Positions 5,592 to 44,391 of a DNA stretch of 44,391 bases are shown piece by piece (position 1 is the first letter of the stretch; every line of letters begins with the position of its first letter). The stretch comes from Escherichia phage vB_EcoS_fPoEco01. The stretch is taken from the sequence record NC_073317.1; one strand, 5' to 3'. A program made the position numbers and the translations under genes. The notes beneath the pieces were generated by a model. That model made no database searches, had not been told where the DNA came from, and saw only the letters and a list, made by a program, of their open reading frames with translations.

Positions 5592-5620
5592 ATAGTACCC
5601 TATTATATTGGGGTGTGCAA
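5592..5620 (-). promoter_or_regulatory. class I sigma70-like promoter (TTGCAC-N17-TACTAT) with embedded AATAG-N4-CTATT palindrome
   Basis: Reverse complement reads TTGCACACCCCAATATAATAGGGTACTATTC; near-identical to elements at 15039..15067, 37339..37367 and 38792..38820. Confidence 0.55.
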
Positions 5621-15038: not shown

Positions 15039-15067
15039 ATAGTATCCTATTATGTTGGGGTGCGCAA
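15039..15067 (-). promoter_or_regulatory. class I promoter (TTGCGC-N17-TACTAT) with AATAG-N4-CTATT palindrome, driving moron operon
   Basis: Reverse complement TTGCGCACCCCAACATAATAGGATACTATTCAC, nearly identical to 37339..37367. Confidence 0.55.
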
Positions 15068-34126: not shown

Positions 34127-36394
34127 CTATTCCAAATCTTCCTCTGTCACTACCAGCATTTCATTCGGTTCGTATATTGTCTTCGGAATCTTGTTATCCG
34201 TTATCCTGGTGTTAAGTCTGTAACGGCCAGGGATTATCTGGTTGTTTTCGTCAGTCCCTGGCACAAGATACCCGGCCTCAACCATTTTCTTAATCTTCCC
34301 ACGTTCTATGGCTTCTTTGGAGTTGAACGCCTTTGCGTTAGGGTCGGACTGTGCGAGCTTATTCGCCGCGGCTACCGTGATGCCCTCGTTGCCGTTGTAG
34401 GTTCCTTCCGCCAGTTCAAACGCCGCCAGTATCGTGGCCTCAGAACTGTTGACAGCATTCTCTACAGTTTTGCGTACGTTTTCTTTACCTTCCTTTGTCA
34501 GCCCTTCTTCCCGCTCTTTCTCCTCGTCAGTTTTGAATGGCTCGAAACCCCACGGCATCAGCACAAGCGCCTTGTGTGGCTCAGGAAGGTCGAGGTTTAC
34601 GATTGTGCCGTACTCCTCTGTGCTACCGATAAACTCAACCGCACGGTATTCTTTCGGCGGCGGGGCTTCACGGAACTGTACAGACTCCAGCACCATACCA
34701 ACCGTCTTCTGTTGAGGTCCGTGCTTAAATTTAGAGTGGTATACATTTATCTGACGGTCGGTTGCGCGTTCAATTGTCAGTTCCACATCGACGCCCGCAT
34801 ACAGCGCCCCACTACCACGGGCCTTCTTTCCACCCTTCGGGGTATGGTGGACGACGCCTACCGCGGCTTTAGTTGTGTCGCGTACTTCTTTCATGATTGC
34901 GATAACTTTACCCATACCGATTGCCGTTGATGAACTGTTCTCGTCGAACTTATCGATCGTCAGGGCCAGCGTCTGGTTGAGGGTGTCAAACGCAACCATG
35001 CCAATAGGTTCATCCCCCGCAGTTTCACGCATCAACTTAATCAGGTTTTTCAGTTTGCCGACTTCACCCATGTCGATGACATGTACATAATCTTTACCTT
35101 CTTCGCCGTATTTAGCCGCGAGTGCATCGATACGTGTACGTGTAGCCGCACCACCTTCACCATCAATATAGAAGTGATGGCAACGCTGGGTATCCGCCCC
35201 GGCAAACCGGTATCCGGAGGCACTCAGGTACATCATACCCAGTGTATAGAACGATTTATACGTGCCGGATTCCCCGACAATATCCCAGATGCAATCCGAC
35301 GGCATGTACCCTTCAACGACGAAATCAGCCTTTACCGGTTCCGGTAGCTCATCCTCTTCTGAGTCCTCGTCGTCTTCCAGGTCGTCCAGGCTGCATGAAA
35401 CTGATTCACGCGCACCCCAACCGATAGCCTCAGCCACTTTACTGAACGGCAGCCCGGTCGCGTCGCACGCATACTTCCACACCTCTTTTGGCGACATGCC
35501 TTCGGTTGCCGTAATGTCGGTGTCGTGAATCATGGTTACGTTCGGCGCTTCGTACCCTTCACGCGGGAAGCACAGCAGGAAGTCATCCGGACGCGGCGTC
35601 GGGTCGCTGTAGTTTTCTGCGTGTTCTGGCGTAGCTGGCATTTTCAGGCCGCGCGGTGTCATGATACCGCCGTACTCGAATGCCAGTGCTTCAAACGCAT
35701 CAGTAAACGCGGTGCGCAGTTCTTCCGGTATCTGGTAATCCGATGCGCTGCTCACCTCATAATCCGGGATGCCTTCCAGCAGACGGTCAGGGTCAATAAG
35801 GTCATTGCGGCGTGACCAGACGACCTCTGAGTTAACCGGCGGCAGGTACATAGGCTGGGACAGAGTGAACCCGCTGTGGTCGGCGCCCATGCCTTTGAAG
35901 AAGTGCTCCAGCAATCCATGACGGACGCGGATGATGTCACCACCTTCAACCGGACGAGCCAGCGGCATGACGACACGAAAGCGCGGCGACTCATCAATAT
36001 GTGACGCCGTGGTATAGAGGCACATGGCTTTACGGCTGCGCTTAACCCGGCGCACCGCTTCCTGGTACTCTTCCGGCGTTGCGCTGTCGAAGTCCAGATA
36101 CGCCAGCGACGATTTGCCTACAGACGCGTCACAGCGATAAAAGAAGCCTTTACGGGCCTGCTTAAAGTCACCTGTTTCCGGGTCTTTTACGGTGCTGTGT
36201 ATAGAATCGCACGCGGCAGTGATATAACCTGGCGCGGTCTTAGGGTTAATCCCGTCACGAACAGCATCAAGCGGCTGAATTAACTCTTTCAGGTCATCCA
36301 GTGTTGCCGTATGTGTGGTTCTGACGTTTATATCCTTTTTCTCCGCCCGCGCGTTGCGACGGGACCACGAGTAGGATAAAATTACATCGGACAT
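34127..36394 (-). CDS. primase-helicase-like replication protein (N-terminal primase-like region, C-terminal RecA-fold ATPase)
   Basis: 755 aa; Walker A GESGTYKS and Walker B-like IGMVAFD in C-terminal half; SD AAGGAAA. Confidence 0.5.
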   Translation of the reverse strand: MSDVILSYSWSRRNARAEKKDINVRTTHTATLDDLKELIQPLDAVRDGINPKTAPGYITAACDSIHSTVKDPETGDFKQARKGFFYRCDASVGKSSLAYLDFDSATPEEYQEAVRRVKRSRKAMCLYTTASHIDESPRFRVVMPLARPVEGGDIIRVRHGLLEHFFKGMGADHSGFTLSQPMYLPPVNSEVVWSRRNDLIDPDRLLEGIPDYEVSSASDYQIPEELRTAFTDAFEALAFEYGGIMTPRGLKMPATPEHAENYSDPTPRPDDFLLCFPREGYEAPNVTMIHDTDITATEGMSPKEVWKYACDATGLPFSKVAEAIGWGARESVSCSLDDLEDDEDSEEDELPEPVKADFVVEGYMPSDCIWDIVGESGTYKSFYTLGMMYLSASGYRFAGADTQRCHHFYIDGEGGAATRTRIDALAAKYGEEGKDYVHVIDMGEVGKLKNLIKLMRETAGDEPIGMVAFDTLNQTLALTIDKFDENSSSTAIGMGKVIAIMKEVRDTTKAAVGVVHHTPKGGKKARGSGALYAGVDVELTIERATDRQINVYHSKFKHGPQQKTVGMVLESVQFREAPPPKEYRAVEFIGSTEEYGTIVNLDLPEPHKALVLMPWGFEPFKTDEEKEREEGLTKEGKENVRKTVENAVNSSEATILAAFELAEGTYNGNEGITVAAANKLAQSDPNAKAFNSKEAIERGKIKKMVEAGYLVPGTDENNQIIPGRYRLNTRITDNKIPKTIYEPNEMLVVTEEDLE

Positions 36395-36452
36395 GTTGTA
36401 TTTCCTTCAGCAAGTAATTTAGCCTCGGCGTTCACCGCGTCGGGGCTTTCTT

Positions 36453-36743
36453 TTATCTTTTAGCCAGACATTCCATCAAATGCTCGTACTTACGGTAATA
36501 ATCTACGACAATCTCATCACCGAAATACTGATACACGTACGCTAAGTGGTCAGAGACATCGATGGAAGCCGACATTGTGCTGAGGCTTCTTAGACTAATC
36601 AACTGCAATTCTTCTGTAACGCAAAACGGCGAATATGAGTCCAGTTTACAGGAAACGTTAAAACACAACGCGTATTCACCTTGCACTAAATAAACCATAT
36701 AAGCATTGTCGTTCTCTTTATCGTGGAAAATTACACCTTTCAT
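36453..36743 (-). CDS. hypothetical protein
   Basis: 96 aa; SD GGAGAA; start overlaps upstream stop. Confidence 0.4.
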   Translation of the reverse strand: MKGVIFHDKENDNAYMVYLVQGEYALCFNVSCKLDSYSPFCVTEELQLISLRSLSTMSASIDVSDHLAYVYQYFGDEIVVDYYRKYEHLMECLAKR

Positions 36744-36922
36744 TTCACGTTCTCCTTAATCCACGCTTCAACTTTATTGCGGTCGAATGTCCCTGGTAAA
36801 CGGCGGCCCATAACCTTAATACAGCAATCCGGGAATTTGCCACTGCGCAACCAGTTATTAATTGTCTGACGTGTCACCCCGATACGTTCAGCTACTTCAT
36901 TCTGGGTCATGTAATGCTGCAT
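36740..36922 (-). CDS. small HTH DNA-binding protein (AlpA/excisionase-like)
   Basis: 60 aa from ATG 36922 (SD GGAGAT); MTQNEVAERIGVTRQTINNWLRSGKFP helix-turn-helix. Confidence 0.55.
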   Translation of the reverse strand: MQHYMTQNEVAERIGVTRQTINNWLRSGKFPDCCIKVMGRRLPGTFDRNKVEAWIKENVK

Positions 36923-37029
36923 TTTTATATCTCCTGTTTGTTTAGTGGAACCGAGTATAGGATAGCGGGAATGTAAAAGCAACCAAAACTGAACACAAAG
37001 TTACTAAGATGCAAAAGATGCTACTGGTA

Positions 37030-37058
37030 TTGACTTTTACTTAAAAATATGCTAAGCT
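37030..37058 (+). promoter_or_regulatory. sigma70-like promoter (TTGACT-N17-TGnTAAGCT) driving structured RNA element B
   Basis: TTGACT 37030..37035, TGcTAAGCT 37050..37058; same architecture as 5687..5715. Confidence 0.5.
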
Positions 37059-37173
37059 TCACTGAGCTTGTGAGATATCGCAAGCGACCGCGGAGCGGCA
37101 GGGAACGCAACGCGTGCCATTAGGCACTTGAGTGTAGTTCCGCTGGCGCTTTCGGAAGGGCCAAAGTCTATTG
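37059..37173 (+). ncRNA. candidate structured RNA element B (second copy of element at 5716..5829)
   Basis: See element A; shared core GAGCUUGUGA...CAAGCGACCGCGG...GAGUGUAGUU.CGCUG.CGC.UUCGGAAGGGCCA with compensatory substitutions in two stems. Confidence 0.45.
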
Positions 37174-37338
37174 TTAATCCCGCCTAAATACCCAAGCCAC
37201 TGATAATTAAAAGTTTCTATAGTTGCCGTAAGCAAGGTAGAGAGTACTTCACTCCGCTGGGGTGGGCTAACGCCCACCCACTGCGTTGCGTACTCTTTTA
37301 AGAAACGAAAGAATCACAACGGCAACGTAACTATTTTC

Positions 37339-37367
37339 TTGCACACCCCAACATAATAGGATACTAT
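37339..37367 (+). promoter_or_regulatory. class I promoter (TTGCAC-N17-TACTAT) with AATAG-N4-CTATT palindrome; start of rightward early operon
   Basis: TTGCACACCCCAACATAATAGGATACTATTCAC, 25 nt upstream of the first early ORF. Confidence 0.55.
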
Positions 37368-37392
37368 TCACTTATCGAAACGAGACAGATGA

Positions 37393-37590
37393 GTGAGGGT
37401 TATGTTTAGGAAGGGTCAGTTGGTTAAAGCCGTAGATTATTATTATAGTATTGTTGAAACAGAGTCTGTCGTTTTTCCCGGAACTTATAGGGTGCGTTTT
37501 CTCGTGAAAAGATTAGGTGCGGTAGATTGGTTCCGTGAAGACGAGCTAACACTCATCGGCAACAATTTTAAATTCAAAGGGGCGAAGTGA
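37393..37590 (+). CDS. hypothetical early protein
   Basis: 65 aa (GTG start; ATG at 37402 possible). Confidence 0.4.
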   Translation: MRVMFRKGQLVKAVDYYYSIVETESVVFPGTYRVRFLVKRLGAVDWFREDELTLIGNNFKFKGAK

Positions 37591-37829
37591 TGCAAATCAT
37601 AATTACAGATAACACCGTTACCTATGAAACGGCTAACGATACTCTGGAGAGCATAGGCGTAAATATCGGTGATGTTTTCGATGTACTGGATTCCTGTAAC
37701 GGTGGCTGGTGGATTAAGACGGGAAGATACACAATCCCGGTAACTAAGGCCGAAGCGCAAATATACACAACGGCATCGAATCATGATGCTCGCGCCGACG
37801 ACTCTGAGGGGGTTGCCGTGAATGAATAA
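37590..37829 (+). CDS. hypothetical early protein
   Basis: ATG 37590 overlapping upstream stop (TGATG); SD AAGGGG. Confidence 0.4.
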   Translation: MQIIITDNTVTYETANDTLESIGVNIGDVFDVLDSCNGGWWIKTGRYTIPVTKAEAQIYTTASNHDARADDSEGVAVNE

Positions 37830-38094
37830 CACTGAGCTGAAAACAGTAGCGGAATATAACCATAAAATACGGGTCATGCGTCGGGGTGCCGGGCTGGAGC
37901 AGTTTTATAACATGTGGCGCACTGCGACGCGCGACCCCGAGTTTCTTAGTACCGGGTATTATTTCAATAAAGGCATTATCCCGATTCGTGCCCGCAAGGA
38001 TTACGGTTGGGTGCGCGAGACACCTAATCTTATGTGGTGCTGGTATTGTGGTGAGTTCTGGGTGCACGTTAAAGAGAAGATGGGGGTGGTATGA
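37822..38094 (+). CDS. hypothetical early protein
   Basis: 90 aa; start overlaps upstream gene. Confidence 0.4.
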   Translation: MNNTELKTVAEYNHKIRVMRRGAGLEQFYNMWRTATRDPEFLSTGYYFNKGIIPIRARKDYGWVRETPNLMWCWYCGEFWVHVKEKMGVV

Positions 38095-38282
38095 AAAATT
38101 ATGATGCGACTAAGTTTGACCAGGCGTTATTAATTAACAAGTTCTATGAAAGATACCCTTTGTCTGAGTTTAAAACAGATTCCGAAAGGGCCGAAGCACT
38201 TGGTTATTTTATGGCTGGCGCTGAGTTGCAAAGGCTTGGAGATTTCATAGTGTACCCTGACTTAGAAGATGATGAGGACTAA
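38091..38282 (+). CDS. hypothetical early protein (acidic C-terminus)
   Basis: 63 aa; SD GGGGGTGG; ATGA overlap with upstream stop. Confidence 0.4.
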   Translation: MKNYDATKFDQALLINKFYERYPLSEFKTDSERAEALGYFMAGAELQRLGDFIVYPDLEDDED

Positions 38283-38285
38283 GTT

Positions 38286-38447
38286 ATGAGAGAAGCATTT
38301 GAACGGTGGGCGGTAGTCGAGGGTCTGCCGGTTAACAAGGGTTCAAAGAAAGAGTACCTGAACGTTAAGACGCGTCTCGCGTGGCGGGCGTGGAAAGCTG
38401 GTGCGAATGTAATGGCTGGTGCATTTGAGAAGAGAGGCGATTTATGA
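38286..38447 (+). CDS. hypothetical early protein (53 aa)
   Basis: ATG to TGA ORF filling the gap between track ORFs; stop overlaps the next start; not in track. Confidence 0.3.
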   Translation: MREAFERWAVVEGLPVNKGSKKEYLNVKTRLAWRAWKAGANVMAGAFEKRGDL

Positions 38448-38635
38448 GCAAGTGGGTTAAGTGTAGTGAGCGGATGCCGGAAAAGCTTGATGATGTGCTG
38501 GTTACTGATGGCGAGCATGTCGAGGTTAAATGGTGGAACGGTCGTATTTGGGATTGTTGGGCACCGCGTAACTCAGATATTAGTTACAAAGATGTAACTC
38601 ACTGGATGCCGTTACCCGAGCCGCCGGAAGTGTGA
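38444..38635 (+). CDS. DUF551-like small phage protein
   Basis: 63 aa; WMPLPEPP C-terminal motif recalled from DUF551-type phage proteins. Confidence 0.4.
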   Translation: MSKWVKCSERMPEKLDDVLVTDGEHVEVKWWNGRIWDCWAPRNSDISYKDVTHWMPLPEPPEV

Positions 38636-38791
38636 TGTTATATTGTAACAATAGTTTGGGATTTTACTGAGTGACTTACGCTGCTACACAGCAGCGTATC
38701 ATTTTTCTCATTTTTGTTCTATTTCACCAAACGCAACAATCGAAGCGACTATTGCAGGAGATGCAACAATACAAACACCAATAAAATTTAC

Positions 38792-38820
38792 TTGCACACT
38801 GGGATAGAATAGGCTACTAT
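38792..38820 (+). promoter_or_regulatory. class I promoter (TTGCAC-N17-TACTAT) with AATAG-N4-CTATT palindrome
   Basis: TTGCACACTGGGATAGAATAGGCTACTAT upstream of repeat-containing ORF 38852..39034. Confidence 0.55.
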
Positions 38821-38851
38821 TCATTTACACAAACGAGAGGAGAGGCAGAAT

Positions 38852-39034
38852 ATGGTTACTTTGATGATTATGGAGTTCGAAAACAGCGCTGCAACTTACC
38901 GCGAGATGACTATGGCGCAGGCGTATCACACGGCATCACACGGCATCACACGGCATCACACGGCATCACACGGCATCACACGGCATCACACGGCAACTTC
39001 TACAAGGCGCAAATCATCAACTAGTTCGGGGTAA
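38852..39034 (+). CDS. small ORF containing the 7 x 10-bp tandem repeat (coding status uncertain)
   Basis: 60 aa ORF with conserved leader CGAGAGGAGAGGCAGA; codons 25-48 are entirely tandem repeat, giving HTASHGITRH periodicity. Confidence 0.3.
   Translation: MVTLMIMEFENSAATYREMTMAQAYHTASHGITRHHTASHGITRHHTATSTRRKSSTSSG
38925..38994. repeat. perfect tandem repeat, 7 copies of 10-bp unit ATCACACGGC
   Basis: Seven head-to-tail identical copies read directly from the sequence. Confidence 0.9.
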
Positions 39035-39040
39035 TTGACT

Positions 39041-39313
39041 ATGAATTTTAACAGTTACACCGTTACCGTTGATTTTGAGGGGCTGGAGCTGCCCCTCCCC
39101 AACAACTACCGGTATATAACTCGCGACCGTTTCGGTTTTATCCAGGGATGGAGGAACAAACCGACAGACACTGAGTTCGGGGTGTCTGGCGGCGAAGAGT
39201 TGCCAATCACTTTCGGGCATCAAAGTAGCAACGAAGAACTTAAAACGGTGATTCGTAAGTATCGCCGCCGCGGTAACACTGGGCTTATAGCAATAACAGG
39301 TGCTGTTGAATAA
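39041..39313 (+). CDS. hypothetical early protein
   Basis: About 90 aa from ATG 39041; weak SD. Confidence 0.35.
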   Translation: MNFNSYTVTVDFEGLELPLPNNYRYITRDRFGFIQGWRNKPTDTEFGVSGGEELPITFGHQSSNEELKTVIRKYRRRGNTGLIAITGAVE

Positions 39314-39332
39314 GCGAGAGGAGAGACAGAAG

Positions 39333-39470
39333 ATGGGCTGGTACGGTAGCTGGACTTTAGGCGAACTGGTAGACGCTTACGAAATAATGGGTAGCACTTC
39401 GGTGTGCGACGGCGACACTAAATCGCTGCTAGTCGGTGTGGATGAGAAAAGGGGCAAAGCTGATGAGTAA
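39333..39470 (+). CDS. small hypothetical protein (45 aa)
   Basis: ATG preceded by conserved leader CGAGAGGAGAGACAGA; stop overlaps the next start; not in track. Confidence 0.3.
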   Translation: MGWYGSWTLGELVDAYEIMGSTSVCDGDTKSLLVGVDEKRGKADE

Positions 39471-39987
39471 CAAAAACGAAGTATTCGAGTACCTGATTGG
39501 CCAGTTACGGCAGCAGGTAAATGGCAACCAGTGCGAAGACCTGGCGCACGAGGTGTTGTCACTCAAGAATCAGTTACGTGATGCGTCGGCGCTGGTGGCT
39601 GAGTTACAGAAAGAACTTGATATCGCCAATAGCACCGTCGTTCGTTTGCGTAAAGAGATAGCTAAGTCTACCGGTGACATTGGAGAATACATCGATGCCA
39701 TGGAGCAATCCGGTTGCTGCAAAGAAGATACTCAGTACAACGCCTGGAGGCCTCATTACGGTGCACGACAACCTGTGCCGGATGGGACTATGGTATTTAT
39801 CCGGTATCGCAACGGGGAGGAGCCGAAACACAGTGTAGCAGCAGAAAAGCGGTCGTGGATTTGGGATGGAACATACGCAGACATAGTGGAATACAAGATT
39901 GACACACAGGAATGCGAGCACAATTGGTTATATAGTAAACACAAAAGTGGCTTCGTTTGCTTTAATTGCGGAGCGCGTAAGCCATGA
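39463..39987 (+). CDS. hypothetical protein with coiled-coil N-terminus and C-terminal Cys pairs
   Basis: 174 aa from ATG 39463; CEHNW...CFNCG zinc-ribbon-like ending. Confidence 0.4.
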   Translation: MSNKNEVFEYLIGQLRQQVNGNQCEDLAHEVLSLKNQLRDASALVAELQKELDIANSTVVRLRKEIAKSTGDIGEYIDAMEQSGCCKEDTQYNAWRPHYGARQPVPDGTMVFIRYRNGEEPKHSVAAEKRSWIWDGTYADIVEYKIDTQECEHNWLYSKHKSGFVCFNCGARKP

Positions 39988-40187
39988 CCAGCATCTTATT
40001 TATCTGGGTATTGTCCGCAGGCCAGATGCAACTAGCGGCATCAGAAACGTTTTATTCGATGGAGGCGTGCCAGTCAGCGGCACGCGCCGCAGAGAACGCG
40101 CACTTCCTGTTCCAGGGCGACAAGCCCAACGATTCAGAGGTACGCGCTATCTGCTCACCTAAGCGACTTGGTAAACAGGAGAAGTGA
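39984..40187 (+). CDS. small protein with N-terminal signal-peptide-like segment
   Basis: 67 aa; hydrophobic N-terminus MTSILFIWVLSAGQMQLAA. Confidence 0.35.
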   Translation: MTSILFIWVLSAGQMQLAASETFYSMEACQSAARAAENAHFLFQGDKPNDSEVRAICSPKRLGKQEK

Positions 40188-40189
40188 TT

Positions 40190-40372
40190 ATGGTACAGAG
40201 ATATAGCTACAACCCGATGTTCGGGTTTACTCCTGATGTTGAAGGCGGGTTAGTGCTTTACGAAGATTACGCAAAACTCGAAGCCGAGTTACAGAAATAC
40301 AAAGACCAGTTCCCGGATTACGTCGAGTGCGCGAACTGTGGGTCAGTTACACATGTGGAAGGGGTGGAGTGA
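40190..40372 (+). CDS. hypothetical protein (MVQRY paralog 1)
   Basis: ATG 40190 with SD AGGAGA; N-terminus MVQRY and LYEDYAKLEAEL shared with the next gene. Confidence 0.4.
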   Translation: MVQRYSYNPMFGFTPDVEGGLVLYEDYAKLEAELQKYKDQFPDYVECANCGSVTHVEGVE

Positions 40373-40566
40373 TGGTACAGAGGTATGAGGTGGAAAAATG
40401 GGGCCTGCCAGAGCCTGAGATGGCTGAGTACGCATACGGCGATTATGTAGAATACGACGCTTATCTTAAACTGGAAGCAAAGTTACGTGAATTCGCTGAA
40501 CAGGTAATGTACGAACCTTGTTCGAAAGTTACAGAAGAAATGGCCCGCGAGATTCTCGGAATATGA
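40372..40566 (+). CDS. hypothetical protein (MVQRY paralog 2)
   Basis: ATG 40372 overlapping upstream stop (TGATG); MVQRY...YDAYLKLEAKL. Confidence 0.4.
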   Translation: MVQRYEVEKWGLPEPEMAEYAYGDYVEYDAYLKLEAKLREFAEQVMYEPCSKVTEEMAREILGI

Positions 40567-40856
40567 GCCTCGCAACTGACATCCTGAAACGAAGCGGCCT
40601 TGCGCCGCTGTCGCCGAGAGCTAAAACACAGATATACAAGCGCCGCCGTAACGCGCTGTACCCTGAGATTCAAGCCAGACGCAAAGCAGTCCGCGCCTGC
40701 GGATTCCAGAACGGGAAGGCCGTTAACCTGGGTGAGTTTAAAACACAGGAACGCGCAGCAATCGCTAATCGGTTATTTAATTACTGGAAATCGCTGGGGT
40801 ACGATGATATTCCGACGAAACCGCAGAGACGACAATACATCTGGAGACACAAATAA
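40563..40856 (+). CDS. hypothetical basic protein
   Basis: 97 aa from ATG 40563 (ATGA overlap with upstream stop). Confidence 0.35.
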   Translation: MSLATDILKRSGLAPLSPRAKTQIYKRRRNALYPEIQARRKAVRACGFQNGKAVNLGEFKTQERAAIANRLFNYWKSLGYDDIPTKPQRRQYIWRHK

Positions 40857-40931
40857 ACCGTTATTAGGATAATTCCTACTCGTGGTATCCTCCAGTTACT
40901 GCATACTTAATACGCACCTGGAGGATTCATC

Positions 40932-41240
40932 TTGGATAAATTTACTGAAACAGTGACTGGCTGGCTTCTGGCCGCCGCACTCGCCGGAGGAGTCATCGGA
41001 CTACGACAACATAAGTCCGTTATTTCTGGCCCTATCGACGGCTTCTGCTTTATTGCAACTGGCTTCACTTGCGCCGTATTTGGTGCACCTCTCGCCGCCC
41101 AATGGTTCGGTATCACCGGCGAGCGCGAGATAGCTGGCCTCGGATTCATTATCGCTATTCTCTGGATGCCCTTCTATTCCCGCCTCTCCGGTATCGTCGC
41201 CGGAGAATACATCGCACGTCGAGGAGGCCCGGGTGAATGA
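40932..41240 (+). CDS. holin (putative, about 3 TM segments)
   Basis: 102 aa hydrophobic protein immediately upstream of endolysin; TTG start with strong SD GGAGGA. Confidence 0.5.
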   Translation: MDKFTETVTGWLLAAALAGGVIGLRQHKSVISGPIDGFCFIATGFTCAVFGAPLAAQWFGITGEREIAGLGFIIAILWMPFYSRLSGIVAGEYIARRGGPGE

Positions 41241-41505
41241 GTTATTCTGGTTCGGTGGTATGCTGGCAATCGGGGGTACATCGCTGTTTAATGTGTATCA
41301 TCCCAGCGTGGACGACGGGCTGTTCGGCCGGGTGCTCTATATCCTGACCACCATCGTTTGCGCCGCCGGATGTATCCACCTGTTACAGGGCAGCATGTCA
41401 CCTACACTGCCTGAGACATTAATCACATTAGTTGCGCTGCGCCAGATTCGTCAGGCGTGGCTGTCATATGGGGGGTATAAGCGTGTCTCGAAACATCTCA
41501 GATAA
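41233..41505 (+). CDS. membrane protein (second holin / antiholin candidate)
   Basis: 90 aa, two hydrophobic segments; GTG start with SD GAGGAGG; between holin and endolysin. Confidence 0.4.
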   Translation: MNELFWFGGMLAIGGTSLFNVYHPSVDDGLFGRVLYILTTIVCAAGCIHLLQGSMSPTLPETLITLVALRQIRQAWLSYGGYKRVSKHLR

Positions 41506-41971
41506 TGGCTTGCATTTCACCGCCGCGTTCGAGGGATTCCGCGGAACTGCGTATCGTGCTACGCCGAACGAGAAGTACCTGACGATAGGCTACGGCCATT
41601 ACGGGCCGGATGTAACCCCAGGTAAGACCATCACACCGGGGCAAGGCCTCCTGCTACTTAATCGTGATATGGCTAAGGCCGTAGCTGCGGCGTCAACCGC
41701 AGCGCACCATTCGCTTACACAGGCACAGTTCGACGCAGTATGCGACCTGGTGTACAACGCAGGTGCTGGCGTTATTGCGGCTACTACAGGAACCGGTAAG
41801 GCTCTGCGTTCTGGTGATATTGCGACGCTACGGGCTAAACTGGCGCTGTTTATCAACCAGAACGGCAAACCGCTACTCGGCTTGCGTCGCCGTACTGCGG
41901 GCCGTCTGGCCCTGTTCGACGGCAAACCGTGGCAGGAGGCAGAGGCTATCGGGCGCGCGGTGAAAGGTTGA
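41468..41971 (+). CDS. endolysin, GH24 phage lysozyme-like
   Basis: FEGFRGTAYRATPNEKYLTIGYGHYG matches the catalytic E...D...T region of T4/lambda-type lysozymes; start codon uncertain (ATG 41468 used). Confidence 0.65.
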   Translation: MGGISVSRNISDNGLHFTAAFEGFRGTAYRATPNEKYLTIGYGHYGPDVTPGKTITPGQGLLLLNRDMAKAVAAASTAAHHSLTQAQFDAVCDLVYNAGAGVIAATTGTGKALRSGDIATLRAKLALFINQNGKPLLGLRRRTAGRLALFDGKPWQEAEAIGRAVKG

Positions 41972-42035
41972 CACCTGAGACTAATCCGACGATACTTAAA
42001 TCACCTCCTGTTCCATCCCTCTGCTCTCCAGTTTT

Positions 42036-42069
42036 ATCCCGGCCCTGACCCAGCCGGGATTTTTTTTTT
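42036..42069 (+). terminator. rho-independent terminator after lysis cassette
   Basis: ATCCCGGC-cctgaccca-GCCGGGAT followed by a run of nine T. Confidence 0.65.
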
Positions 42070-42091
42070 ATCTATTTTCTGCAATGACTAG

Positions 42092-42120
42092 TTGACTATT
42101 AACATCGACCCTATTATATT
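42092..42120 (+). promoter_or_regulatory. sigma70-like promoter (TTGACT-N17-TATATT)
   Basis: Immediately after terminator and upstream of conserved leader CGAGAGGAGAGGCAGA and ATG 42153. Confidence 0.45.
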
Positions 42121-42152
42121 TACTCCATCGACAACGAGAGGAGAGGCAGAGA

Positions 42153-42341
42153 ATGGTGACCAAGATTAAGCATACCGATAATTGGGGCGATTTCCTGGAG
42201 ATATATAAGTGCAGGGACGGGTCATTACTTATAACTTGTACCGACGGTGCTATCGACGAATCAGCTAATGTTAATATGAGCCTGGATGATTTTATTATCA
42301 TTGTTGGGCAAGTGGCGGCTTTTTACGGAGATGATAAATGA
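42153..42341 (+). CDS. hypothetical protein
   Basis: 62 aa; conserved leader/SD. Confidence 0.4.
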   Translation: MVTKIKHTDNWGDFLEIYKCRDGSLLITCTDGAIDESANVNMSLDDFIIIVGQVAAFYGDDK

Positions 42342-42487
42342 AAATCACAGATATCGAAGCATTCGAAGACGCGCAACTGATGGCACGTATCGCTGTCAGT
42401 AACCTGAGCACTACTGTACCAGCGGACGCGTTCTGGTTCGCCGCGATGCAGACACTGAAAGCAGCTTATGCAGGAGAGAAGAAATGA
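42338..42487 (+). CDS. small hypothetical protein (49 aa)
   Basis: ATGA overlap with upstream stop; not in track. Confidence 0.3.
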   Translation: MKITDIEAFEDAQLMARIAVSNLSTTVPADAFWFAAMQTLKAAYAGEKK

Positions 42488-42645
42488 GCGAACAAGGTCA
42501 AGTAAGCCAACCATTACGAGTAGGCCGTAAAGTCAGTCACACACCGTTCCCGACACGCGAGGAACTGATGAAACGTAACAGTTTCCCCGGGCCGGACAAG
42601 AACAAGTATCTCAATCGCATGTGGGGAGAGCGTAAAAATGACTGA
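42484..42645 (+). CDS. small hypothetical protein (53 aa)
   Basis: ATGA overlap with upstream stop; not in track. Confidence 0.3.
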   Translation: MSEQGQVSQPLRVGRKVSHTPFPTREELMKRNSFPGPDKNKYLNRMWGERKND

Positions 42646-42826
42646 CCGTGAATATGAGAAAGCGTGTGTAGAAGCGGCGCTCCGCCCCACCGACAACGGC
42701 GAATCGGAGATTGCTTGCCTGGACACTATGATTCAGTACTACGCAAATAAGGTTGACCGCCTGATGGAGCAACGCCGTGAACTGATTAACCGCTTCAACC
42801 TGAACAAAGGTGACACCAATGCCTAA
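42638..42826 (+). CDS. hypothetical protein
   Basis: 62 aa; start overlaps upstream stop. Confidence 0.4.
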   Translation: MTDREYEKACVEAALRPTDNGESEIACLDTMIQYYANKVDRLMEQRRELINRFNLNKGDTNA

Positions 42827-43058
42827 AATCACAATTGCATCGCTCGAGCGTCGTATCCTGGTGCTCGAGTCGGAGAAACAGACGTTAGGCGGGCAACTGT
42901 CTATCAATGGTGAGTTTCAACTGGAGGCGTTTAAGTTGCTTCTTGATAAGTTGAGGGCGGACGAAAAGCCTTGTGCGCATGACTACTACTTACATGTGGT
43001 TGGCGGGTTACATCGAGCCACGTGCATTAAATGTGGTGAAGCGTATGGAGTCGCCTAA
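42819..43058 (+). CDS. hypothetical protein with C-terminal Cys/His pairs
   Basis: ATG 42819 with SD AAAGGTGA; ends CAHDYYLH...CIKCGEAYG. Confidence 0.4.
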   Translation: MPKITIASLERRILVLESEKQTLGGQLSINGEFQLEAFKLLLDKLRADEKPCAHDYYLHVVGGLHRATCIKCGEAYGVA

Positions 43059-43227
43059 GCCAGTAGTAATTGATGGTGTCCTGTGGAAACCCTACTCGGT
43101 TAACCACATCGACGCCGACGGGAAGAAGTTTAGCTTCTACATTTTTGCAATTAGCCGTGAGCACGCCGCTTGTGTGGTCGATGATATACGAGAAACGGCG
43201 TGGCTTGGCGATGAGGTAGTGGGGTGA
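43045..43227 (+). CDS. hypothetical protein
   Basis: ATG 43045 preferred over track upstream start. Confidence 0.35.
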   Translation: MESPKPVVIDGVLWKPYSVNHIDADGKKFSFYIFAISREHAACVVDDIRETAWLGDEVVG

Positions 43228-43229
43228 TT

Positions 43230-43400
43230 ATGTTCAGTGACATCAACGCAGCAATCGAAGAAGCAATATGGCGGCGCTATAACGGCGAGCAACAGCGGCA
43301 CTTTTGCCTCGTGCAACGCGGTAACATGATTGCCGTAGTGCAGGACCGGGATAACAAATATCCGAATGCGATGTGGTCAACGAGGAATTTCTTAGGATGA
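43230..43400 (+). CDS. small hypothetical protein (56 aa)
   Basis: ATG to TGA ORF; stop overlaps the next start; not in track. Confidence 0.3.
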   Translation: MFSDINAAIEEAIWRRYNGEQQRHFCLVQRGNMIAVVQDRDNKYPNAMWSTRNFLG

Positions 43401-43639
43401 TTACCAGCATTCCTAACCTGATTAAAGAATTCGGCACGATGGCGGAGACATGCCGACAAACTGGCCTCAACGAAATGACGATTGCTAAGTACAGCAAAGA
43501 CGTGAAATGTGAGCGCCACGTAATCTATAACAACCGTCTAATGACGCACGTTAAGACAAGCCCGGTATTATTCACGCGCCGCGGTATCACTAAAACCGAG
43601 CAACGTATTGCTAAAGAGGAGAACGAATGCGGCTACTAA
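43397..43639 (+). CDS. hypothetical protein (possible HTH)
   Basis: About 80 aa from ATG 43397. Confidence 0.35.
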   Translation: MITSIPNLIKEFGTMAETCRQTGLNEMTIAKYSKDVKCERHVIYNNRLMTHVKTSPVLFTRRGITKTEQRIAKEENECGY

Positions 43640-43732
43640 TCATCCCTAACGTCTGGGCTATCGCTGTAGCTAACAACCATTACGGCGGCGATGGTAAAAG
43701 AGCACCACGACACGGCCTGTATAACTGATACA

Positions 43733-43754
43733 AGCCCTCTACGGAGGGCTTTTC
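43733..43754 (+). terminator. rho-independent terminator
   Basis: AGCCCTC-tacg-GAGGGCT followed by TTTT. Confidence 0.5.
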
Positions 43755-43849
43755 TGTACATCCCGCCCAATCCCCTTATATAATCCCTTTAGACGCGTAG
43801 GGCGCGTCTGGTGCGCTCTGATGGTCAGACGCATATGCAAGGGGATTAT

Positions 43850-44391
43850 ATGAAGCTGAAACTCAAGCAGCCATCGCCAGAGGTGGTGCAAGCTGCACAT
43901 GAAGAAGCTGTTAGCGCAAACCGTCGCCGTAAACGACCGCGCGGTAAACAGAGCCTTTATCAATCGTCCCGTAATTCTGCGGCATTGTGGGACCCGGACT
44001 ATTGCGACGAGTTAATCCGGTTCTTTGACCGCAACTCATGGGAACTCGTACCTACGTCCAAGGGTGACGAACGCCCGCTGATTCAGGATAAACCCCCGTC
44101 ACTGGCCCGCTTCGCCTTACACATCGGCGTAACTATCCCTATTATTAAGCTGTGGTTGCGTGAGATTCCGGCGTTTGCAGAAGCCTATGAAACCGCTCAG
44201 GCGCTGGAAGAGGCGTATTTCACTGAGACAGGCGCTGCCGGTATCTCCGCTACGTTTGCTGCGGCTAAGCTGGGCTTAAGCAAAGAGAAACCTGTTGAAT
44301 CCTCCGAAGAAACTGCGCCGACTGAGATTGTGTTCACCGTAGCGGAGCCGGTAGGTAAAATCGTTACCACGAACATGGGTGAGGTAGGGGA
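43850..44391 (+). CDS. terS: terminase small subunit (3'-truncated by window edge)
   Basis: Open from ATG 43850 (SD AAGGGGA) to the last base of the window with no stop; LWDPDYCDELIRFF...PPSLARFALHIGVTIPIIKLWLREIPAFAEAYETAQ resembles the HTH region of P27/Terminase_2-type small subunits; absent from track because it has no stop in the window. Confidence 0.6.
   Translation, partial: MKLKLKQPSPEVVQAAHEEAVSANRRRKRPRGKQSLYQSSRNSAALWDPDYCDELIRFFDRNSWELVPTSKGDERPLIQDKPPSLARFALHIGVTIPIIKLWLREIPAFAEAYETAQALEEAYFTETGAAGISATFAAAKLGLSKEKPVESSEETAPTEIVFTVAEPVGKIVTTNMGEVG

Follow-up and report, generated by a model that had tools for sequence, protein, structure and literature searches.

An isolate-specific 10-bp tandem array in a frameshifted DUF7170-like gene of phage fPoEco01

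A tandem array within gp58

Gene gp58 of the Escherichia phage fPoEco01 contains seven perfect copies of a 10-bp unit, ATCACACGGC, that are private to this isolate and in their present number shift the reading frame of the gene. The array probably arose recently by slipped-strand expansion: a short direct repeat lengthened inside a dispensable gene, which would have inactivated gp58. The principal features of the locus are listed below, numbered on the window, by which is meant the whole 44,391-bp stretch of DNA that was analysed.

38677..38698, plus strand: intrinsic-terminator-like hairpin TACGCTGCT-ACAC-AGCAGCGTA with a T-rich tail (stem of 9 pairs, 5 of them GC)
38792..38820, plus strand: promoter-like motif TTGCAC-N17-TACTAT (class I in the earlier note), with 4 copies in the window versus 0.19 expected
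38835..38845, plus strand: purine-rich ribosome-binding site GAGAGGAGAGG, part of a conserved linker at 38831-38855
38852..39034, plus strand: gp58 (RefSeq QCF72_gp58), 60 aa, frameshifted DUF7170/phrog_4653 remnant (ORF translation, profile searches, clusters)
38925..38994, plus strand: tandem array of seven perfect ATCACACGGC copies (sequence, Tandem Repeats Finder, alignments with relatives)
39022..39024, plus strand: TAG in the ancestral DUF7170 frame, GAG in relatives (alignment with relatives, copy-number modelling)
39041..39313, plus strand: gp59, phrog_1972, intact (ORF list, profile search)

Tandem Repeats Finder reports 7.1 copies of the unit over 38925-38995 on the plus strand, with 100% matches, no indels and a score of 142, and finds no other substantial array in the window, of which this is the strongest by far. 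The copy number of seven is the count in the one deposited assembly on which the allele rests. An earlier note, made from the sequence of the window, had described seven identical head-to-tail units within a 60-codon ORF, 105 nt past the promoter at 38792..38820, and this description is accurate. Seven perfect copies of a 10-mer cannot have originated by chance.

The array site in related phages

The window was matched by megablast to Kagunavirus (Guernseyvirinae), a group of K1G-like virulent siphoviruses of E. coli; the phage, in full vB_EcoS_fPoEco01, has the GenBank entry MT711526.1. Robust, infective and lytic, it has served as a model phage of very high stability (PMC9771388). The best megablast match over 36000-44391 is phage fFiEco03, at 98%.

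In three relatives (VIPECOTPH05A, Bas71 and DUEC01; loci L001, L003 and L004) the flanks of the array are collinear with those of fPoEco01 and approximately 94% identical, and the alignment is broken by one 50-nt gap that falls exactly at the array. At this site the relatives have a pair of neighbouring degenerate 10-bp units, such as ATCACCTGGC ATCAAACGGC. The two units agree with one another at 7/10 positions, and the expanded unit departs from them at 1 and 2 positions. The two-unit form is also found in 3 IMG/VR and 5 metagenome contigs, bringing the total to 11 loci together with the three aligned relatives. In GenBank, 20 Kagunavirus records cover the gp58-gp59 query, all of them with a span of 427-431 bp versus 481 bp in fPoEco01, and a query comprising the array and short flanks (38905-39010) returned short-form sites only (54-56 bp versus 106). 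The array is contained in none of the other phage records, and the gp58-gp59 region is carried by none of the E. coli genomes. Thirteen Campylobacter phage matches to the 481-nt query were set aside; they were not recovered with 38905-39010, so the match lies elsewhere in the query.

The same picture emerges at the level of proteins. Eight homologous protein clusters are full-length (49 aa), and HMMER, run exhaustively over 1.84 billion representatives, identified family members of 49-52 aa with no other expansion. The 60-aa product of gp58 forms a singleton cluster, known from one contig among assemblies amounting to 15 billion proteins. In all examined relatives the two-unit site sits within an intact 49-aa DUF7170/phrog_4653 gene, and there is no copy-number polymorphism among them. 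Alleles with three to six units, or with a perfect two-unit seed, were found in none of the GenBank phages, IMG/VR, the metagenomes or the protein collections. As the relatives all have the two-unit form and the gp58 product is a singleton, the array is private to fPoEco01, where the additional 50 bp correspond to five units beyond the two of the relatives. A comparison of copy number among related isolates, proposed in the earlier note, thus gives two degenerate units in every case against seven here.

Elsewhere, a 20-mer of two units matches one unrelated IMG/VR contig and five unrelated bacterial contigs, mostly from Actinomycetota and Proteobacteria. The contig IMGVR_UViG_3300027782_000184 (L008), matched by the 20-mer only and without homology to the array flanks of the window, carries on its reverse strand at approximately 290-400 a degenerate repeat tract rich in ATCACAC(GG); an inverted repeat, GGGGGCGTGTGATGTGTGATG, comes next, ahead of a gene.

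The restriction of the allele to a single contig in so large a body of assemblies could also be taken to mean that the array, or at least the count of seven, is absent from the physical genome and stems from assembly or sequencing, as the number of tandem units can be misjudged by De Bruijn assemblers whose k falls short of the array length. We regard such an artefact as distinctly unlikely. At 70 bp the array is shorter than an ordinary Illumina read and would normally be resolved; moreover, two units of 7/10 identity give an assembler no means of making a perfect repeat, which implies that one of some length is present, and the unit carries real substitutions with respect to the ancestral units. 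Even a true count of five or eight, either of which would be in frame, would leave the protein truncated by the TAG at 39022.

A role for the array as DNA was also considered. A period of 10 bp matches a single turn of the helix, and a promoter lies nearby, which would suit origin iterons, an array for regulator titration, or a phased protein-binding or curved-DNA element. Origin iterons are exemplified by the four repeats of lambda ori inside gene O, P1 oriR and the octamers of P4 ori/crr. Such repeats, usually imperfect and 17-22 bp long, are kept from one related replicon to the next, adjoin an AT-rich unwinding region and are served by a cognate initiator. The fPoEco01 array resembles these origins in having direct repeats in coding sequence with helical-turn phasing; however, it lacks the conservation, the 17-22-bp imperfect units and the AT-rich neighbour. 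The GC content is 60% in the array, 49% in the stretch 3' of it and 40% in the upstream spacer between terminator and promoter, and there is no origin-type skew at the array: the cumulative GC-skew minimum is at approximately 36-37 kb, at the switch to divergent transcription and some 2-3 kb upstream.

The unit is likewise not enriched elsewhere in the genome. A scan of the window for ATCACACGGC at no more than one mismatch gave 10 matches versus 2.65 expected, and 7 of the 10 are the array itself; the three one-mismatch matches outside it, set against 2.65 expected in total, represent no enrichment of dispersed sites and give no indication of a regulon. Some shorter sub-words of 7-8 nt are 4-6 times above a first-order Markov expectation, with the 8-mers ACGGCATC and ACACGGCA occurring 8 times each on both strands versus approximately 1.3-1.8. 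Copies of these two words are scattered genome-wide in coding regions (e.g. 5998, 10933, 34552 and 37770), and their excess is probably an effect of codon or dipeptide usage. A-tracts are absent from the unit, and no RNA or DNA secondary structure was found for the array, which is less stable than shuffled sequence (z = +1.5 and +1.1).

Conservation or repetition would be expected of iterons, and of operators in competition with a titration array, and since neither is seen, both of these suggestions from the earlier note lose their support: the array is absent from the 20 GenBank relatives and 8 environmental loci, all relatives replicate without it, and fFiEco03 is without the whole gene. Any function as a DNA element is therefore extremely improbable. 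Perfect repetition with helical phasing, however conspicuous, does not by itself make an iteron; here it was the comparison with relatives that decided the matter.

Frameshift of gp58 and loss of the family signature

The 50-bp insertion shifts the reading frame by +2 relative to the intact family consensus, so the earlier note's remark that a 10-bp unit alters the frame applies to the present seven-copy state itself. The product of gp58 begins with a family-like segment (residues 1-31, approximately 90% identical to DUF7170 members), continues with a repeat-encoded part of approximately 2.3 periods of the 10-aa unit HTASHGITRH, and ends in an out-of-frame tail, TSTRRKSSTSSG. Membership of the Pfam family DUF7170 (PF23776) is set by a gathering cut-off of 27 bits over a domain of roughly 50 residues, and gp58 falls below it at 21.5 bits, aligning with profile positions 1-33 of 52. 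Against phrog_4653 it scores 27.4 bits, over residues 1-31 only. The corresponding scores for the intact ORF of the relative L004 are 65.2 bits (positions 1-50 of 52) and 75.6 bits. The position of the gene is common to gp58 and the relatives, being the first after the promoter with the phrog_1972 gene next.

The segment lost, GFYKAQI-NEFGV-DYEF, makes up the C-terminal third of the protein, its best-conserved part, and its conservation extends to homologues in Drexlerviridae, among them aalborv_55. For the intact protein, AlphaFold2 gives a beta-beta-alpha-beta-beta topology (pLDDT 68, moderate confidence), in which the array is predicted to fall in the single helix and the frameshift to delete strands 3 and 4, both C-terminal. 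Searches for DUF7170 found no sequence homologue in the PDB, no NCBIfam family and no papers. From its sequence, gp58 of fPoEco01 is a frameshifted, pseudogene-like remnant of DUF7170 and not an ordinary hypothetical protein, as which it is currently annotated; annotation and family-building should treat it as a pseudogene. The expanded gp58 is very probably a null allele.

A second lesion lies downstream of the array. In the 116 nt past the array the sole substitution with respect to VIPECOTPH05A changes GAG to TAG at 39022-39024 in the ancestral DUF7170 frame; in the current gp58 frame the change is synonymous (ACG to ACT). When copy numbers from 0 to 11 were modelled, those in frame (2, 5 and 8) ended at this TAG, without EFGVIDYEF. 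The TAG in the ancestral frame therefore means that no copy number restores the full-length protein.

The downstream gene gp59 seems to be shielded from these changes. The gp58 stop codon at 39032-39034 is 7 nt upstream of the gp59 ATG (39041), a position at which the DUF7170 stop codon of relatives overlaps the gp59 ATG. Over the modelled range of 0 to 11 copies all three frames terminate 5-19 nt ahead of that ATG, and polarity on gp59 should therefore be minimal. The stretch 38997-39225, comprising the DUF7170 C-terminus and the phrog_1972 gene, has approximately 75-83% nucleotide identity with Drexlerviridae phages (aalborv, MikeNSara, SFP17 and others), and among the matches to this module are also approximately 178 Klebsiella phage records, counted by name. 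This similarity begins directly 3' of the array position, and aalborv has the same 11-nt stop/start overlap.

The TAG also bears on the proposal that the array is a contingency locus, a hypermutable phase-variation switch that toggles gp58 in phage populations. Simple-sequence contingency loci are known from Haemophilus, Neisseria and Campylobacter, and homopolymer tracts from some phage genes. As in those loci, a tandem repeat whose unit is not a multiple of three lies within an ORF, here near a promoter, such that copy number alters the frame; as the units are perfect, slippage rates should be high. Unlike them, the array has no ON state, there is no polymorphism across relatives, all of which have two degenerate units, and the repeat is not conserved, whereas a switch that had evolved as such ought to turn up repeatedly in the lineage. 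The phase-variation-like behaviour suggested in the earlier note finds no support here, and we consider a switch of this kind very improbable.

Slippage as the probable origin of the array

Expansion by slippage in a dispensable gene accounts for these observations as follows. An imperfect two-unit direct repeat would have pre-existed in the small accessory gene DUF7170/phrog_4653, and replication slippage or unequal exchange would have added five 10-bp units. The resulting +2 frameshift would have replaced the conserved C-terminal third of the 49-aa protein by junk sequence. With the gene dispensable and translation still stopping ahead of gp59, such a mutation may have been of little cost, and after inactivation of the gene the array could have grown neutrally, presumably without a function of its own as DNA or RNA.

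The units are identical and arranged head to tail, the inserted 50 nt divide exactly into five units of 10, and a direct repeat is already present at the same site in relatives; intermediate or variable copy numbers are absent from close kin. As no database holds an intermediate allele, we infer the stepwise path from two to seven units. Since the ancestral units are 7/10 identical and off the expanded unit by 1 and 2 positions, this path also presupposes earlier point changes or a templated correction. The identity of all seven units indicates a recent event. The earlier note had offered recent expansion or active homogenisation as explanations of this identity, and it is recent expansion that the two degenerate units of the relatives favour. 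We infer the slippage mechanism, together with the order of the two lesions and the null phenotype. Neutrality of the expansion is assumed, with selection for inactivation as a small residual possibility.

Slipped-strand mispairing and tandem-duplication frameshifts at short direct repeats occur in E. coli and phages through RecA-independent replication slippage. Slippage at short direct repeats is said to have been studied by Lovett and others, and the 6-bp-repeat switch of Salmonella mutL is reportedly an example of a slippage-type frameshift. The fPoEco01 array is like the E. coli and phage events in its pre-existing repeat, exact-multiple insertion, perfect copies, collinear flanks and coding frameshift. 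It differs in the size of the gain, five units from an imperfect two-unit seed with no intermediates seen, and no evidence of reversibility or function was found. A literature search on Kagunavirus tandem repeats returned nothing, and a general search gave no phage-specific precedent. Tandem expansion that pseudogenises a small DUF7170 gene is an ordinary class of mutation; the array is real, non-random and isolate-specific. It is a convenient marker of the isolate and a probable hypervariable site, and it could be tracked in production lots of fPoEco01, which serves as a model phage and therapeutic candidate.

Dispensability and independent disruptions of DUF7170

The DUF7170 gene is dispensable in the genus, because fFiEco03 has another cassette in its place and the lineages of the proteins P0005 and P0012 have fused or truncated forms. 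In fFiEco03, the nearest genome, the promoter, ribosome-binding site and start codon are shared up to 38854, where homology breaks; from there until 39463 a different cassette is carried and the whole DUF7170 gene is absent. P0005, on 4 contigs, is a DUF7170 fusion protein that has lost the 3' half in an independent lineage. In another independent lineage P0012 is a rearranged 46-aa form, also without the 3' half.

In the P0005 contig L021 (1501-1722) the fusion is to a CxxC...CxxC zinc-ribbon-like tail, and gp59 and neighbouring genes are lost. The tail of P0012, NRSDYCRR..., matches the spacer ahead of the promoter (window approximately 38738-38770) when this is translated, and the sequence suggests a microhomology-mediated rearrangement at AAACG(G)CAAC. 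Both disruptions are situated just 3' of the two-unit site.

These cases raise the question of whether the expansion was fixed because loss of DUF7170 was advantageous on the host used for isolation or propagation, E. coli #5521, in which the protein might, for example, be toxic or trigger an abortive-infection or other defence system. Disruption of DUF7170 in at least three lineages independently, each time in the 3' half (the array, P0005 on 4 contigs and P0012), would agree with a selected knockout, as would the preservation and translational buffering of gp59 and the location of the gene in a swappable accessory cassette. However, if a dispensable gene were decaying neutrally, three disruptions among several dozen family sequences would be expected just as well, and the TAG together with the frameshift resembles decay and not a single selected hit. 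Nor do papers, a solved homologue or a named family suggest a function for DUF7170. Selection for the knockout is thus unlikely. If loss of the gene was selected, DUF7170 would be a candidate defence trigger, although nothing here shows so.

A more speculative extension, which we consider clearly improbable, is that the array is a hypermutable site by which a virulent Kagunavirus rapidly discards DUF7170, a small early protein sensed or toxic in some hosts, and by which it possibly regained the protein before the TAG arose. Were this true, the array would be a phage-side escape or contingency mechanism against host defence, and the recurrent 3' disruptions would mark DUF7170 as a frequent target of counter-selection.

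Elements surrounding the locus

The small DUF551/phrog_924 gene at 38444-38635 is the immediate upstream neighbour of the terminator, which in turn lies ahead of the gp58 promoter. The hairpin at 38677..38698 ends this upstream transcription unit. The promoter-like motif at 38792..38820 is kept in relatives, including fFiEco03, where another gene comes next, and is part of a repeat family with extended similarity between 37333-37385 and 38786-38838. The four TTGCAC-N17-TACTAT sites, at 5592-5620 and 15039-15067 on the minus strand and 37339-37367 and 38792-38820 on the plus strand, share an extended conserved core, TTGCACAC...ATAATAGGnTACTATTCA. None of the four was returned by a scan for the strict sigma-70 consensus, and they may therefore represent a phage-specific promoter class.

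The linker AAACGAGAGGAGAG(G/A)CAGAA(T/G)ATGG is present at 38831-38855 and again at 39312-39336, ahead of successive small genes. Its first copy ends at the left edge of the cassette swap between fPoEco01 and fFiEco03, which suggests that such linkers serve as recombination joints in the shuffling of accessory genes.
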